From the NCBI GenBank assembly GCA_038087875.1, contig CM075995.1:7256001-7320000 (forward strand): a DNA stretch of 64,000 bases, given 5' to 3'. Shown one piece after another: positions 18,436-63,690 of this stretch. Numbering within the stretch: the stretch's first letter is position 1; each line of letters starts with the position of its first letter. Under the pieces are notes generated by a model, which was not told the origin of the DNA, made no database searches, and was given only the letters and a program-made list of their open reading frames with translations. The DNA is from Malacoraja senta (taxonomy: Eukaryota). The translations under genes were made by a program, and so were the position numbers.

Positions 18436-19420
18436 TAACCTATGATGAGCGTTTGTCGGCACTAAGCCTGCACTCGCTGGAGTTGATAAGAATGAGGGGG
18501 GACCTCATTGAAACAATCAGAATAGTGAAAGGCTTGGATAGAGTGGATGTGGAGAGGATGTTTCCACGAGTGGGAGAGTCTAGGACTAGAGGTTATAGCA
18601 TGAGAATTAAAGCACATTCTTCTAGGAAGATGAAGAGAAATTTCTTTAGTCAGAGGATGGTGAATCTGTGAAATTCATAGCCGCAGAAGGCTGGTGAGGC
18701 CAAGTCAGTGGATCATTTTTAGGCAGAGACTAGACTAAGTGGGACCCGTTGGGTCACAAAGGGAGGCCTGGTTCCCCAACTCAACCCAACCCATTCCCCA
18801 GCACAATATTCCACCACTCACCCATAGCCCCTAACTGCGCAGGCGCGGCTTATTTCCCCTCATCCCCCAGCACTCCCTCCCCCTCCTCTTCATGTGTGGG
18901 AGGGAAGTGGGGTGTGTGGCGGGGGGGGGGGTAGTAGGGGGGTAGGGGGGCGTGTGGGGTGGGAGGGGAGGAGGGGTGTGTGTGGACAGGAAGGTATAGG
19001 AGGGGGGGAGAGAGTGGTGGGGGGAGAGGAGGTGTGGGGGAGGGGGGGTGTTGGGGGGTATGGGGTAGGGTGGGGTGGGAGGTGTGTATGTGTGGGCGGG
19101 GGGGGTGAGGGCAAGAGGGGTGTGTGGGCGGGGGGGTGTGTGGGGGGGGTGTTGCGAGTGGGTGTGTGTGGGCAGGGAGGGCGGGTGTGTGGGCGGGGGG
19201 TGTGTGGCAGGGGGGTTTGTGGGGGAGTGGGGTGTGTGTGGGCGGGTGTGTGTGTGTGGGCAGGGGGGGTTGTGTGGGGGGAGAGGGGTGTGAGTGCAGG
19301 GGGGGAGTTGTGGGGGGAGAGGGGTGTGTGGGCAGGGGTGAGTGAGCACCTAGAAAAGGCGGGGGAAGAGCCATGAGGGAGAGGGGGGGAGAGGGGGAGG
19401 AGCCAGAGAGGGGGACTCAC

Positions 19421-20479
19421 AGCGGGCACTGGTCGTTCTCCTCCACCGGGATCGGAGTCTCCGCTTTCCGTTTGGCGACATTGGCGACTCTGGGCTGGGC
19501 TAGGTCTCCCACACTGGGCTGGGTCGGGTCTCCGACACTGGGCTGCTCGACGCTGGGCTGCTCGGGGCTGAGCTGCTTGAGGCTGGGCTGCTTGGGACTG
19601 GGCTGCTTGGGGCTGGGCTGCTTGGGACTGGGCTGCTTGGGGCTGAGCTGCTTGGGGCTGGGCTGCTCGGGGCTGAGCTGCTTGAGGCTGGGCTGCTTGG
19701 GACTGGGCTGCTTGGGGCTGGGCTGCTTGGGGCTGAGCTGCTCGACGCTGGGCTGCTTGGGGCTGGGCTGCTTGGGGCTGAGCTGCTTGAGGCTGGGCTG
19801 CTTGGGGCTGGGCTGCTTGGGGCTGAGCTGCTTGAGGCTGGGCTGCTTGGGGCTGGGCTGCTTGGGGCTGAGCTGCTTGAGGCTGGGCTGCTTGGGGCTG
19901 GGCTGCTTGGGGCTGAGCTGCTTGAGGCTGGGCTGCTTGGGGCTGGGCTGCTTGGGGCTGGGCTGGGCTGCTCGACGCTGGGCTGCTTGGGTCTGGGCTG
20001 CTTGGGGCTGGGCTGCTTGGGGCTGAGCTCCTTGAGGCTGGGCTGCTTGAGGCTGGGCTGCTTGGGACTGGGCTGCTTGGGGGCTGGGCTGGGCTGCTCG
20101 ACGCAGGGCTGCTTGGGACTGGGCTGCTTGGGGCTGGGCTGCTTGAGGCTGGGCTGCTTGGGGCTGGGCTGGGCTGCTTGAGGCTGGGCTGCTTGGGACT
20201 GGGCTGCTTGGGGGCTGGGCTGGGCTGCTCGACGCAGGGCTGCTTGGGACTGAGCTGCTTGGGGCTGGGCTGCTCGACGCAGGGCTGCTTGGGACCGGGC
20301 TGCTTGGGACTGGGCTGCTTGGGGCTGGGCTGCTCGGGGCTGGGCTGCTCGGGGCTGGGCTGCTAGGGGCTGGGTTGCTTGGGGCTGGGCTGTTTGGGAC
20401 TGGGCTGCCTGGGGGCTGGGCTGGGCTGCCTCGGGTCCCTCCAAAAGTCCGGTTGGAAACCTCCGCCGGCCATCCTCAT
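19421..20479 (-). pseudogene. Putative captured first coding exon inside the Helitron (disrupted)
   Basis: ATG at 20479 ([16 protein letters not shown]), KQPSP-type repeats, ends ...VANVAKRKAETPIPVEENDQCP(L)|GTGAGT; one in-frame TAG and two 5-bp frameshifts in the repeat. Confidence 0.45.
19490..20430. repeat. 15-bp minisatellite (GGGCTGCTTGGGGCT)n inside Helitron
   Basis: Roughly 60 units with variants; source of the LGCLG / KQPSP / PSSPA ORFs. Confidence 0.95.
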
Positions 20480-21281
20480 CTCCAGTAAAGACGCGATGGC
20501 GCAGGAAGGGGCGGACCGTTCCGGGGAGTGACAGGGGAAGAGACTAAACCGTGCGGCGCTGAACGGCAGCAGAAGAGATCGATCTGCGCACGCGCGGTTT
20601 TAAAGATTTTTAAACCTCGCTAACTTTTACAACATTCAATCGATCGGAACGGAACTTGGTGCACTCGCAGCACAAGAGAACGGTGAGTGAACTGGCAAAA
20701 AATTCAAGCGCTATCGCGAACCGTTTTTGCACAAATAGAAAGACCGTCAAACCGTAAGAAAACAAGATCAGAGTTTTAGTTATGTGTGGATAGATAGATT
20801 CTTGATTAGTACGGGTGTCAGAGGTTATGGGGAGAAGGCAGGAGAATGGGGTTAGGAGGGAGAGATAGATCAGCCATAATTGAATGACGGAGTAGACTTG
20901 ATGGGCCGAATGGCCTAATTCTACTTCCATCATTTATGACCTTATGACCTCATGACATGTGTCGGAGGAAACCGAAGCACCTTGAGAAATCCACGCAGGT
21001 CACGGGGAGAACGTACTAACACGGTGCAGACAGTGTCCGCAGTCAGGATCGAACACGGGTCTCTGGTGTTTTCTGAGGCAGCGACTCTACCGCTGCGCCT
21101 CCGTGATGCCCCCAAGTTCAGTTAAAAACAAGGGTTTACCGTACTGCGCTTGAAAATCAGGGTCCCTGCTCTCCCTCTGAGCTATGATGAGCACCTCTGC
21201 TATGATTGCAAAACATCTTAGGTACAGACTGGTTTTTATCAACATGTGTTTGTTTAGACTCGTGTTTTTTAATCTACTTAC

Positions 21282-22470: not shown

Positions 22471-23798
22471 TTTAGGCATTAGGCCATTCAGCCCATCAAG
22501 TCTACTCCGCCATTCAATCATGGCCGATCTAACATCCCCTCTCAACCCCATTCTCCTGCCTTCTCCCCATAACCCCCGACACCCGTACTAATCAAGAATC
22601 TGTCAATCTTCACCTGAAAAATATCCATTGATTTAGCCTCCAATGCCTTCTGTGGCAATGAATTCCACAGATTCATCACCCTCTGACTAAAGAAATTCCT
22701 CCTCATCTCCTTTCTAAAGGTACATTCTTTTATTCTATGGCCTCCGGTCCTAGACTCTCCCATTAGTGGAACCATGCTCTCCACATCTTTCTGAAGAAGG
22801 GTCTCAACCTGAACCGTCACCCATTCCGTCTCTCCAGAGATGCGGCCCGCCCCGCTGAGTTACTCCAGCGTTTTGTGACTATCTTCGATTTATACCAGCA
22901 TCTGCAGTTTTTTTCCTACACATTCTCCCCACATCTTTGTTTAGTTTAGTTTAGTTTATTATGATCACATGTGCCGAGGTACAGTGAAAAACCTTTTAGT
23001 TTGGTTTAGTTTAGAGATACAGCACAGAAACAGGCCCTTCGGCCCACCGGGTCCGCGCCGACCAGCGATCCTCGCACATTAACGCTATCCCACACATACT
23101 AGGGACAATTTTTTTTTACATTTACCAAGCCAATTAACCTCCAGACCTGCACGTCTTTGAAATGTTGGAGGAAACCGAAGATCTCGGAGAAAGCCCACGC
23201 AGGTCACGGGGAGAACGTACAAACTCCGTACAGACAGCACCCATAGTCGGGATGGAACCCGGGTCTCCGGGGCTGCATTCGCTGTAAGGCGGCAACTGTT
23301 ATCCAGTCAGCGTAAAGACTATACATGATCACAATGAAGCCGTCCACAGTGTACAGATACTGGATACAGGGAATAACATTCAGTGCAAGGTAAAGTCCAA
23401 TTAAAGACAGCTCAAACGTCTCCAATGGGGGAGATGGGAGGTCAGGACCACTCTCTCATTGGTGAGAGGACGGTTCAATTGTCCGATAGCAGTTGGGAGG
23501 AAACTATCCCTGAATCGGGAGGTGTGCGTTTTCAACCTTCTGTACCTCTGCCTGATGGGAGTGGGGGCATAACCACAAGGTGAGAGGGGGGAAAGTTTAA
23601 TGGAGATGTGCGAAGCAATTCTTTTTTTTTAACGCAGAGACCAGTGGGTGCCTGGAACGCATTGCCGGCAGAGGCAGATATGAGAGTGGTGATTAAGAGG
23701 CTTCTAGATAGGCACGTGGAAGTGCGGATAGCAGAGGGATATGGATCATGTACAAGCAGTTTGTGATCAGATGTGCACGAGATAGCCCGGCTGTTGGC

Positions 23799-25994: not shown

Positions 25995-26700
25995 AATAAT
26001 AATAATATCTTTTATTGTCATTGCACATAGGTGCAACGAGATTTGGTATGCAGCTTCCATCCGATAGTCATAACTTAAACAACTAATAAGATTTAGATAC
26101 CCCGAGAAACATGGTTTGTAAAAAGAACAGTAAAACAGTGAAACAGTCTAAAGTGCAAATGTGTCTGTGCGACGTGACCATCCGAGGGGGACAGTTCATG
26201 GGGGGGGGGCACTCAGCAGGGCCGGTTCAGAGCGATAGCTCTGGGGATGAAGCTGTTCCTGAGTCTGGAGGTGCGGGCGTAGAAGACCTTGTAACGTCTG
26301 CCGGAAGGTAGGAGTTCGAACAGTCCATTACAAGGGTGTAAAGAGTCTTTATGGATGCTGACGGCCTTCCTGAGGCACCGTGTGTAGTAGATGCCCTCCA
26401 AGGCTGGTAGCTGTGTCCCAATAATCTTCTGCGCCCTGTGGACGACCCGCTGAAGAGCTCTCCTCTCCGCCTCCGTGCAGCTGAGATACCACACAGAGAT
26501 GCCATATGTTAGGATGCTCTCTGTGCTGCAGCGGTAGAAGGTTGTCAGTAGCTGTTGGGGCAGACCAGTCTTTTTCAATGTTCTTTGGAAGAACAGTCGT
26601 TGCTGTGCCTTCTTGACCAGCGCAGCGGTGTTGGTGGACCATGTGAGGTCCCCAGAAACCTAAAGCTGGACACTTTCTCCACACTGTCCCTGTAGATGGA
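25995..26700 (-). mobile_element. Rex1/Babar-like LINE 3' fragment with (ATT)n tail
   Basis: FYRC..ESILTY.I.VWY...LQRVV..A.KIIG..LP...HP...LFELLPSGRRY...RTSRLRNSFIPRAI. Confidence 0.85.
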
Positions 26701-34800: not shown

Positions 34801-35593
34801 ATCTTCGGTGTAAACCAGCATCTGCAGTTCCTTCCGACACTGACTCTTTTACCTGGGGTAGGGGATCGAGAACCAGAGGACATAGGCTTAAGGAGAAGGG
34901 GGGGGGGGGGAGATTAAATAGGACCCGGGAGGGGTAACTTTTTCCACACAGAGGGTGGTGGGTGTATGGAACGAGCTGCCGGAGGAGGTAGTTGAGGCAC
35001 AATTAAGAAACATTTAGACAGGTACATGGATAGCACAGGTTTGGAGGCATATGGGCCACACGTAGGCAGGTGGGACAAGTGTAGATGGGACATGTTGGCC
35101 GGTGTGGGCAAGTTATGCCAAAGTGTTTAAGAAGGAACTGCAGATGCCTGGAAAAATCCAGGTAGACAAAATGCTGGAGAAACTCAGCGGGTGCGGCAGC
35201 AGCAATGGAGCGAAGGAAATAGGCAACGTTTCAGCCCAAACTTTGCCTATTTACTTCGCTCCATAAGTTATGCCGAAGGGCCTGTGTGTCCAAGTTGTAT
35301 GACTCTATGATTCTATGAATACATCGGGTAAACATACAGGCACATAGGGGTGACAATAGATGCAGGAGTGACCAAATCATGAGGAAAATGGAGAGTTTAA
35401 ATGCATAGAGTCTCTTGCCCAGATTAGGGTAATTGAGAACCAGAGGGGAGGGGAGGGGAGGGGAGGGAGGGGAGGGAGGGGAGGGGAGGGGAGGGGAGGG
35501 GAGGGAGGGGAGGAGGGGGGGGGAGGGGGAAGAGATTTAATAGGAATCTGAGGGTAACTTTTTCACACAGAGGGTGGTGGGTGTATGGAACCA

Positions 35594-37536
35594 GCTGCCA
35601 GAGGAGTAGTTGGGGCACAATTAAGAAACATTTAGACAGGTACATGGATAGGACAGGTTTAGGGGGATATGGGTCAGTGTAGATAGTACAGTTTGGCTAG
35701 TTTGGGCCGAAGGGCCTGTTTCCACGCTGTAAGACGATGACTGCAGATAAATTTGTTTCCAGATAAACCGGCTGCCAGAGGAGGTAGTTGGGGCCACATT
35801 TAAGAAACAGTTAGACAGGTACATGATAGGACAAGTTTAGGAGGATATGGGTCAGTGTAGATAGTACAGTTTGGGCAAGTTGGGCCGAAGGGCCTGTTCC
35901 ACCGCTGTAAGACTATGACTGCAGATAAATTTGTTTCCAGATAAACCGGCTGCCAGAGGAGGTAGTTGGGGCCACATTTAAGAAACAGTTAGACAGGTAC
36001 ATGATAGGACAAGTTTAGGAGGATATGGGTCAGTGTAGATAGTACAGTTTGGGCAAGTTGGGCCGAAGGGCCTGTTTCCATGCTGTAAGACTATGACCGC
36101 AGATAAATTTGTTTTCCAGATAACCCAGCTAGCTGCCAGAGGAGGTAGTTGGGGCCACATTTAAGAAACAGTTAGACAGGTACATGGATAGGACAAGTTT
36201 AGGGGATATGGGTCAGTGTAGATAGAACAGTTGGCTAGTTTGGGCAAGTTGGGCCGAAGGGCCTGTTTCCACGCTGCAAGACGATGACTGCAGATAAATT
36301 TGTTTCCAGATAAACCGGCTGCCAGAGGAGGGTAGTTGGGGCCACATTTAAGAAACAGTTAGACAGGTACATGGATAGGACAAGTTTAGGGGGATATGTG
36401 TCAGTGTAGATAGTACAGTTTGGCTAGTTTGGGCAAGTTGGGCCGAAGGGCCTGTTTGCACGCTGCAAGACGATGACTGCAGATAAATTTGTTTCCAGAT
36501 AAACCGGCTGCCAGAGGAGGTAGTTGGGGCCACATTTAAGAACAGTTAGACAGGTACATGATAGGACAAGTTAAGGAGGATATGGGTCAGTGTAGATAGT
36601 ACAGTTTGGGCAAGTTGGGCCGAAGGGCCTGTTTCCATGCACTAAGACTATGACCGCAGATAAATTTGTTTCCAGATAAACCGGCTGCCAGAGGAGGTAG
36701 TTGGGGCCACATTTAAGAAACAGTTAGACAGGTACATGGATAGGACAAGTTTAGGGGGATATGTGTCAGTGTAGATAGTACAGTTTGGCTAGTTTGGGCA
36801 AGTTGGGCGAAGGGCCTGTTTGCACGCTGCAAGACGATGACTGCAGATAAATTTGTTTCCAGATAAACCGGCTGCCAGAGGAGGTAGTTGGGGCCACATT
36901 TAAGAAACAGTTAGACAGGTACATGATAGGACAAGTTTAGGAGGATATGGGTCAGTGTAGATAGTACAGTTTGGGCAAGTTGGGCCGAAGGGCCTGTTTC
37001 CACGCTGTAAGACGATGACTGCAGATAAATTTGTTTCCAGATAAACCGGCTGCCAGAGGAGTAGTTGGGGCCACATTTAAGAAACAGTTAGACAGGTACA
37101 TGATAGGACAAGTTTAGGAGGATATGGGTCAGTGTAGATAGTACAGTTTGGGCAAGTTGGCCAAAGGGCCTGTTTCCACGCTGTAAGACTATGACTGCAG
37201 ATAAATTTGTTTCCAGATAAACCGGCTGCCAGAGGAGGTAGTTGGGGCCACATTTAAGAAACAGTTAGACAGGTACATGGATAGGACAAGTTTAGGAGGA
37301 TATGGGTCAGTGTAGATAGTACAGTTTGGGCAAGTTGGGCCGAAGGGCCTGTTTCCAGCTGTAAGACTATGACCGCAGATAAATTTGTTTCCAGATAACC
37401 CAGCTAGCTGCCAGAGGAGGTAGTTGGGGCCACATTTAAGAAACAGTTAGACAGGTACATGGATAGGACAAGTTTAGGGGATATGTGTCAGTGTAGATAG
37501 TACAGTTTGGCTAGTTTGGGCAAGTTGGGCCGAAGG
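35594..37536. repeat. Tandem array, ~177-190-bp unit x11, derived from a CR1/HER1 3' end
   Basis: GCTGCCAGAGGAG recurs at ~35594, 35771, 35949, 36132, 36318, 36507, 36684, 36871, 37049, 37225, 37407 with few substitutions. Confidence 0.95.
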
Positions 37537-50625: not shown

Positions 50626-51246
50626 AGGGCCTGTCCCACGGGCATGCGACTCCATGCGGCAAGCGCGACCTAACCGCAAGCGGGGGCCGCGCGGAGGTCG
50701 AGTGATCCCTGTACAGGGCCGGTCCCACCAGCATGCGGCTGCATGCGGCAAGCGCTACCAAATCGGAAGCGGGGGCCGCGCGGAGGTCGAGTGACGTCAA
50801 GACAGTGCGTACGGCGGCGAGGCAGTGCGCACGGCCGTTGAGGCGGCTGCGTCCGGCGTCGAGGCGGTGCGCACGGCCTCAAGGCGGTTGCGACCGGCGT
50901 CGAGGCGGTGCGCACGGCCTCGATGCGGCTGCGTCCGGCGTCAAGGCGGTGCGCACGGCCTCGAGGCGGTTGCGTCCGGCGTTGAGGCGGTGCGCACGGC
51001 CGTCGATGCGGCGCGCACGTCCTCAATGCGGCTGCGGGGCGGCAGGCCGTTGCCGCACGGAATTTTTGAACAGTGTCAGTTTTTAGGAGCCCCGCGCGGT
51101 GTCGGGACCAGCTCCGCACAACTCCATACGGCTCCGGCGATCGAAGTGGGACCGGCCCCGCGACCTCCGCGCGGCCCACGCACGGCCCCCGCTTGCGGTT
51201 AGGTCGCACTTGCCGCATGGAGTCGCATGCCCGTGGGACAGGCCCT
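50626..51246. mobile_element. GC-rich Harbinger-like MITE with internal 21-bp minisatellite
   Basis: ~65-bp TIRs AGGGCCTGTCCCACGGGCATGCGACTCCATGCGGCAAG...; CGTCGAGGCGGTGCGCACGGC-type units at ~50795-51030; CpGs intact, so likely young. Confidence 0.8.
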
Positions 51247-62102: not shown

Positions 62103-63690
62103 CAGTGCCCTCCATAATGTTTGGGACAAAGACCCATCATTTATTTATTTGCCTCTGTACTCCACAATTTGAGATTTGTAATAGAAAAAAATCGCATGTG
62201 GTTAAAGTGCACATTGTCAGATTTTAATAAAGGCCATTGTTATACATTTTGGTTTCACCATGTAGAAATTACAGCTGTGTTTATACATAGTCCCCCCCTA
62301 TTTCAGGGCACCATAATGTTTGGGACACAGCAGTGTCATGTAAATGAAAGTAGTCATGTTTAGTATTTTGTTGCATATCCTTTGCATGCAATGACTACTT
62401 GAAGTCTGCGATTCATGGACATCACCAGTTGCTGGGTGTCTTCTCTGGTGATGCTCTGCCAGGCCTGTATTGCAGCCATCTTTAGCTTATGCTTGTTTTG
62501 GGGGCTAGTCCCCTTCAGTTTTCTCTTCAGCATATAAAAGGCATGCTCAATTGGGTTCAGATCGGGTGATTGACTTGGCCACAAGAATTGACCATTTTTT
62601 GGCTTTGAAAAACTCCTTTGTTGCTTTAGCAGTATGTTTGGGATCATTGTCTTGCTGTAGAATGAACTGGAGCAGATAGGATGTGTCTATCCACTTCAGA
62701 ATTCATTAAGCTACTATCATCAGCAGTTGTATCATCAATGAAGATAAGTGAGCCAGTACCTTCAGCAGCCATACATGCCCAGGCCATAACACCCCCACCA
62801 CCGTGTTTCACAGATGTGGTGGTATGCTTTGGATCTGGGCAGTTTCCTTCTCTTCTCCATACTTTGTTCTTGCCATCACTCTGATATGTTAATCTTCGTC
62901 TCATCTGTCCACAAGACCATTTTCAAGAATGTGGATGCTCTTTTAAGTACTTCTTAGCAAACTGTAACCTGGCCATCCTATTTTTGCAGCTAACCAGTGG
63001 TTTGCATCTTGCAGTGTAGCCTCTGTATTTCTGTTCATGAAGTCTTCTGCGGACAGTGGTCATTGACAAATACACACCTGACTCATGAAGAGTGTTTCTG
63101 ATCTGTCGGACAGGTGTTTGGGGATTTTTCTTTATTATAGAGATAATTCTTCTGTCATCAGCTGCGGAGGTCTTCCTTGGCCTGCCAGTCCCTTTGCGAT
63201 TAGTAAGCTCACCAGTGCTCTCTTTCTTCTTAATGATGTTCCAAACAGTTGATTTTGGTAAGCATAAGGTTTGGCTGATGTCTCTAACAGTTTTATTCTT
63301 GTTTCTCAGTCTCATAATAGCTTATTTGACTTTCATTGGCACAACTTTGGTCCTCGTGTTGATAAACAGCAATAAAAGTTTCCAAAGGTGATGGAAAGAC
63401 TGGAGGAAAGACTAGGTGCTGAGAGCTCTCTTATACCTGCATTAAGGAGGCAATTAAACACACCTGAGCAATTACAAACACCTGTGAAGCCATGTGTCCA
63501 AACATTATGGTGCCCTGAAATGGGGGGACTATATATAAACACAGCTGTAATTTCTACATGATGAAACCAAAATGTATAAAAATGGCCTTTAATAATATTT
63601 GACAATGTGCACTTTAACCACATGTGATTTTTTTATATTTAAAAATAAATAAATGACGTGTCTTTGTTCCAAACATTATGGAGGGCACTG
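62103..63690 (-). mobile_element. Tc1-like DNA transposon (IR/DR type), near full length, inactive
   Basis: TA TSD, ~220-bp TIRs starting CAGTGCCCTCCATAATGTTTGG with the internal direct repeat CCATAATGTTTGG. Confidence 0.95.
62360..63357 (-). pseudogene. Tc1 transposase pseudogene
   Basis: HTH region, GRPRK motif, VKHGGGGVMAW, WPSQSPDLNPIEH; start codon appears mutated to ACG, early TAA, frameshifts and a deletion near 62665. Confidence 0.9.

Follow-up and report, generated by a model that had tools for sequence, protein, structure and literature searches.

A Helitron family in Malacoraja senta whose front half probably represents a transposase promoter and untranslated first exon, with one member fused upstream of a RepHel gene

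From where does a non-autonomous Helitron obtain what looks like a promoter, a short first exon and a splice donor, and which downstream exon could these serve? In this work, we have followed up an earlier note on such a copy in the window (the whole 64,000-nucleotide stretch of Malacoraja senta contig CM075995.1 that was analysed), in which the cassette was read as captured from a host gene and as ending at a possible RING-finger start. We propose instead, with a probability of about 0.68, that the front half of the element is a Helitron transposase promoter with an untranslated first exon, and that one member of the family became fused above a RepHel gene, likely providing it with a new left end and promoter. 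The features of the window copy are collected in Table 1.

Table 1. Features of the Helitron copy and its flanks (window positions).
Feature	Position	Strand	Basis or remark
3' flank, repeated target sequence	18630..18729	-	Empty-site paralogues
Hairpin (5-bp stem) and CTAG terminus, then T	18730..18755	-	Common to RepHel right ends
3' block, including second GTGAGT (18821-18816)	18756..18895	-	Of the type of the fused elements' internal block, not the terminal one
C-rich low-complexity tract	18896..19414	-	Would be intron in fused elements
Putative splice donor GTGAGT	19415..19420	-	Kept in 45 of 50 copies (alignment anchored on GTGAGT)
Putative first-exon tail	19421..19537	-	TGC at 19428-19426 is a CpG-decay state
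15-bp tandem array within exon, 57.5 copies	19538..20423	-	Carries TAG 20365-20363 and two frameshifts
ATG 20479 (private to window copy) and family ATG 20473	20471..20479	-	Copy counts
Promoter-like block with motifs that we take to be NRF1-, SP1- and YY1-like	20480..20605	-	Homologous to plain RepHel left arms
Left terminal sequence, 5' TC after A	20606..20790	-	End and empty-site comparison
5' flank, same repeated target sequence as 3' flank	20791..20890	-	Empty-site paralogues

The segment at 18730-20790 (minus strand) is a non-autonomous Helitron of 2,061 nt. The ends that had been ascribed to it are present: TC stands at 20790-20789 after an A, the hairpin lies at 18755-18743, and CTAG at 18733-18730 is followed by T. 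When the flanks are joined, they align over 200 nt (83.5%) with a paralogue at window 22507-22706, a gap-free empty site, and the insertion junction is spanned in 25 of 40 matches of the joined flanks; these empty-site paralogues are continuous across the junction, which bears out an insertion between A and T without target duplication. The flanking target repeat is presumably LINE-like. Other copies of the family have a CTRR 3' end (24 of 28) and a TC start after A (19 of 28), and because of the gap-free empty site and these shared termini the ends stand above chance. The hairpin of the window copy has been left with a stem of 5 bp, and its fold is not more stable than those of shuffled sequences (z 0.21); the family stem is longer, and the hairpin of one family copy folds at z -1.79. 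The family is of high copy number, and candidate copies run into the thousands: a first look in the 1.94-Gb genome gave 3,353 candidates with the head, 1,640 with the tail and 1,877 with the 3' end, figures that are not copy numbers and from which 40 each were scored. Heads of family copies are 88.6% alike pairwise. As for the copy in the window, it is a dead and unremarkable one, its coding death by a TAG and two net frameshifts in the array having been recognized from the start.

How gene-like is this copy? The promoter-type motifs lie where they had been placed (GCGCGTGCGCA at 20595-20585, CCGGAA at 20524-20519, CCGCCCC at 20514-20508 and CGCCATC at 20501-20495), and the four occurred together in none of 2000 shuffles, the motifs having been chosen after the sequence was seen. 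CCGGAA is present in 2 of 44 heads, one of them the window's, and the CCAAT box of the block has decayed in this copy. In a survey of 55 copies (60 loci minus the window, counted as 2, and 3 near-duplicates), none of the 45 other copies that could be scored has the ATG at 20479, where 37 have CTG, while the family ATG six bases on occurs in 28 of the 45. The donor at 19420-19415 is present as stated, but its exon side, GCT, is not consensus. Before this donor the window copy reads DQCPL, from which a RING or zinc-finger start, a half-site from a captured E3-ligase exon, had been suggested. At the codon read as Cys, 50 copies have CGC (34), TGC (6), CAC (5) or another triplet (5); since CGC is the majority and TGC and CAC are its two decay products, found in like share, the Cys stems from an Arg codon that underwent CpG decay. 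Most members of the family lack a Cys at that codon, the majority of the array-less copies described below has none before the donor, a conserved C-x2-C half-site was not found, and Pfam was blank. Furthermore, 19 of 50 copies are in another frame because of a 7-nt indel, and the ATG-to-donor phase is distributed 14/11/15 among 40 copies. The RING reading is refuted, and we give it practically no chance. CpG columns are in general more decayed than others (0.87 versus 0.95 in heads, 0.82 versus 0.92 in array-less copies), as in silenced copies, which counts against the transposase leader proposed below.

A search with an array-less copy led to a subfamily with a short exon, which we call older. 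Thirty loci, minus 2 duplicates and 3 poor matches, left 25 scorable copies, of which 17 have the ATG, 21 the donor and 18 an open frame; their exons measure 131-168 nt, in all phases, with 139 nt in 9 of the 25. The proposed cassette of promoter, short exon and donor is borne out in this subfamily, in which the way from ATG to donor is open, but not in copies of the window type, in which the frame is random. In the column majority of 53 array-less copies, a stretch of 272 nt contains motifs of 5 of 9 promoter classes, two of the consensi having been loosened; such a clustering was reached in 0 of 1000 shuffles. The same majority has an open 48-codon frame to the donor without any Cys, 29 of the 53 copies having been picked by protein in that frame, which biases the set toward an open frame. 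A midpoint-rooted tree of 104 copies, with unsettled bootstrap, places the window copy within a clade of 56 (support 99/97) that holds all 29 long-array copies and is nested among array-less ones. Over the first 16 codons, 54 copies show 49 silent versus 112 replacement changes, so that a silent excess is absent. In the tail of one copy (L182) the end of the exon has independently expanded into a second micro-array, of 7-nt units; with the 15-bp array, this makes the exon slippage-prone at two spots.

Was the exon taken from a host gene? The capture proposed in the earlier note is not sustained: neither a protein nor a host locus was found, and the promoter part aligns to the left arms of plain autonomous Helitrons, as described below. 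Protein queries from the exon and its tail were blank in three protein searches, an HMM search over 1.84 billion proteins, Pfam, PDB and Atlas; the queries were short and the third frame was scanned in Pfam only, which makes this weak evidence for so short an exon. The array-less ATG frame gave only unnamed, chance-level clusters in Pfam, PDB and Atlas, and a Pfam scan of 116 window frames recognised no host exon. The best 30 of 150 scored genome matches to the exon are all Helitron copies, with a Helitron left end directly upstream in 29 and beyond a nested insertion in the last. The ATG-to-donor stretch (about 140 nt) may nevertheless be host-derived, because it is unmatched in the plain autonomous arms. 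In that case the exon, as distinct from the promoter and from any RING, would have been captured in the style of the bat element HelibatN3, and free copies would lend it to host genes. Its open frame in 18 of the 25 array-less copies and its CpG richness speak for this, and such a pattern is seen in bats (PMC4224331, PMC4778049). The blank searches and the Helitron-only matches speak against it, as do the range of exon lengths over all phases, the preponderance of replacement changes, and the fact that open frames of 46 codons arise often at such a GC content (estimate about 0.4).

Transcripts bear on the same question. About 6% of one polyA run (X7) was read and aligned to two family copies other than the window's; the run is probably from a related species, since 3 of 30 letters differ at the locus that seems to correspond. 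The splicing from the donor into downstream host exons that the earlier note envisaged was not seen in these reads, which cross the donor unspliced. Depth is flat across it (20.5, 18.7 and 19.0 in the first copy; 21.5, 21.0 and 20.6 in the second), and among the 147 and 42 aligned reads there is no joint, loose end at the donor or start pile-up. This is weak evidence against common use of the donor, because a small number of loci gave rise to the reads, of which 6 are without the GT. At L034:1561-1690, six X7 polyA reads have a foreign, ETS-like upstream end. Six reads there, perhaps the same, differ from the family mostly at third positions of one frame, without GT or stop. This would suit a host exon; against it, the source of the six reads was not found in this genome. 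All things considered, a host origin of the exon is unlikely. Another family copy (L131:1531-2290) is split by a nested insertion of about 760 nt, and a matching junction is transcribed in X7; the foreign upstream end of a second X7 read group is explained by this insertion (3/30 mismatches).

If a host parent is improbable, which genes of the genome carry a comparable cassette? A search with PF14214 gave 112 matches. A young autonomous Helitron family has open RepHel frames of up to 1,766 aa that are 95-99% alike; its members (L083:581-5878 on the minus strand, L081, L087 and L089) stand in head-to-tail arrays with its derivatives. As a partner of the window family it was rejected, since the two have no more in common than the hairpin end and some 5' letters. 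An older, decayed RepHel family (20 further loci read) has both ends in common with the window family, so the ends of the latter are those of RepHel-coding elements of the same genome. The left terminal sequence of the window copy is 71-78% identical to plain autonomous left ends, 83-84% to those of the fused elements described below, and 56% to those of the young family. The promoter block aligns to 4 of 4 plain RepHel left arms, above all 200 shuffles, and one plain arm has a perfect NRF1-like site and a CCAAT box. A GTRAG lies 290-380 nt from the end in 8 of the 12 plain arms; these fall into about three independent types, all of which lead to one shared acceptor and the RepHel ATG. Because plain arms carry it, the order of promoter, short exon and donor appears to be the native layout of the transposase gene of this lineage, with its function as the predicted part. 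At least three promoter/first-exon arms on one acceptor suggest, from the sequences, repeated arm swaps. The arms of the older family (L290, L293, L296, L228 and L248) include CCAAT with GC, CCAAT with a TATA-like motif, and GC boxes with GGTAAGT. Pieces of the older family were found at 15 of 160 tail-bearing loci, duplicates included. Twenty array-less copies were traced over 10 kb without coming upon an intact acceptor and RepHel start; hence, no autonomous ancestor that bears this same exon was found among them.

Our results show that a family copy was joined to such a RepHel gene. The family cassette stands directly upstream in 3 of 27 RepHel 5' regions. At the fusion junction, the family 3' block breaks off at ..CCCACTTAG, TCTAG being absent, and is followed by TTAACAAC; an AG lies 23 nt below this junction. 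The identical junction, between A and T, occurs at 7 places by pattern and at 2 decayed ones, 9 in all; the two C8 places share a flank, which leaves 8 independent places at most. In 34 acceptor rows, 22 are plain and keep the A and T together (the empty site), 8 are fused and 4 are other. One letter is common to all 8 fused rows and absent from 20 of 20 scorable free copies; as the window 3' block is of the internal type and the free copies lack this letter, the free copy came first. The RepHel DNA of 7 fused copies forms one clade (95/87; 97% of bootstrap trees) in a tree with 17 plain copies and 1 young-family outgroup, from which copies without 330 aligned nt were omitted. Two fused copies run from the left end through RepHel to CTAG followed by T, with unrelated 5' flanks. 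When the 8 fused copies were mapped, 1 had the whole cassette, 2 had the promoter part and donor, 2 had internal deletions, and in the other 3 the readable part contained nothing but the 3' block, in some cases together with the C-rich tract. Among fused copies one has lost promoter and exon and one the donor, which post-insertion decay could explain. The acceptor-to-ATG distance is 15-19 nt in the fused copies, that is, without a fixed frame. An in-frame fusion of exon to RepHel was therefore rejected, the spacing being variable and the sole whole fused exon being one of 139 nt with a stop.

We propose the following course of events, of which the insertion, the loss of CTAG, the read-through into RepHel and the spread as a unit are well supported, while promoter use, splicing and the part of the fused element in mobilising the window's subfamily are what we infer. 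A family copy would have landed a short way upstream of the RepHel exon in an autonomous relative, and its terminal CTAG would have been lost. RepHel would then nick the left end, roll past the crippled internal hairpin and stop at the true right end, so that the fusion would move as a unit. Transcription would begin in the promoter block; one of the two GTGAGT donors, that of the exon or that of the 3' block, would be spliced to the AG 23 nt below the junction, and the first exon would serve the RepHel ATG as a 5' leader. The fused element, with the closest left end found, may have mobilised the free family copies, among which the exon spacer would have grown into the 15-bp array. Fused left ends are 83-84% like the window's, versus 91% among array-type copies, which leaves the mobiliser step loose. 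The second GTGAGT (window 18816-18821, minus strand) follows a more favourable exon side, TGG. Two fused copies have it 69-70 nt upstream of the junction, and an intron of about 92 nt could result from its use.

The fusion might also have succeeded only by way of its fresh left end, motifs and GTGAGT being passengers and transcription coming from elsewhere or as unspliced read-through. Lone GTRAGT is indeed at chance level (63 seen versus 61.8 expected), GTGAGT is no better conserved than 3 of 48 non-CpG hexamers, the X7 reads cross it unspliced, and several fused copies are without parts of the cassette. Yet the fusion drops the promoter and first exon of the plain element, so that RepHel needs another; the motifs cluster as in none of the 1000 shuffles, and a branch-point-like TTAAC is kept, with the AG, below the junction. 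We regard passengers as quite unlikely, and return to the proposed transposase leader: the downstream exon to which the evidence points is the Helitron's own RepHel exon.

As described in PMC11417382 and PMC4778049, canonical non-autonomous HLE1 Helitrons have the 5' TC, the 3' hairpin with CTRR and the insertion between A and T found here, and likewise lack coding capacity and share their ends with RepHel elements; the likeness rests on the ends, RepHel having been recognised by Pfam domains and a within-genome tree. Unlike them, the window family has a promoter-exon-donor block and a grown 15-bp array, and one of its copies has come to serve as left arm to an autonomous element. HelibatN3 carries a NUBPL promoter, six codons and a splice donor, according to PMC4778049 and PMC4224331, which also report end bypass after terminator damage and promoter-donor exon trapping for bat elements. 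Similarly, in the window family a Helitron left end is followed by promoter, short exon and donor, the whole having multiplied to thousands, and by analogy it would work as an exon trap. In contrast to HelibatN3, no host parent was found and the promoter is homologous to Helitron arms; a chimeric transcript was not seen in about 6% of one run, and the only downstream exon found is the transposase's own. The composite HelibatN539, with the left end of one copy and the right end of another moving the DNA between them after bypass of the first right end (same sources), has its counterpart in the fused relatives rather than in the window copy: a crippled right end is joined to another's and has moved as a unit. 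Here, unlike in HelibatN539, the fused element carries the RepHel gene, which makes the product autonomous, and one can see the empty site as well as the damage by which the end was crippled (loss of TCTAG).

In the literature searched, subscription papers and repeat databases being outside its scope, a fused form in which a non-autonomous copy serves as transposase leader is not described, either in general or for cartilaginous fishes. The fusion is thus a fully visible case, with its lesion, empty site and single clade, of the gain of a left end in one step, and the fused Helitron likely gained a new promoter in the same step. This bears on the greater variation of left than of right ends (PMC11417382). 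It also calls for caution: promoter-exon-donor blocks in Helitrons can be the leader of their own transposase, and host capture needs a parent gene. On a wider view, which is tentative and to which we give somewhat less than even odds, a non-autonomous Helitron acted as exon trap for its own transposase: having landed in intron 1 of an autonomous relative and lost its CTAG, it provided left end, promoter and first exon in a single stroke, and so founded an autonomous family that amplified the free cassette; arm swaps of this kind would be the birth of Helitron families.

Elsewhere in the window, a 178-bp tandem array (10.6 copies, 92%) lies at 35589-37536, a GC-rich 21/41-bp array at 50805-51019, and a fragment of a Tc1/mariner transposase (PF01498) at 62926-63321 on the minus strand. 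Pfam ALKBH8_N matches were found at 2466-2963 and 26216-26659 (minus strand), with a model that, we assume, often matches LINE ends.
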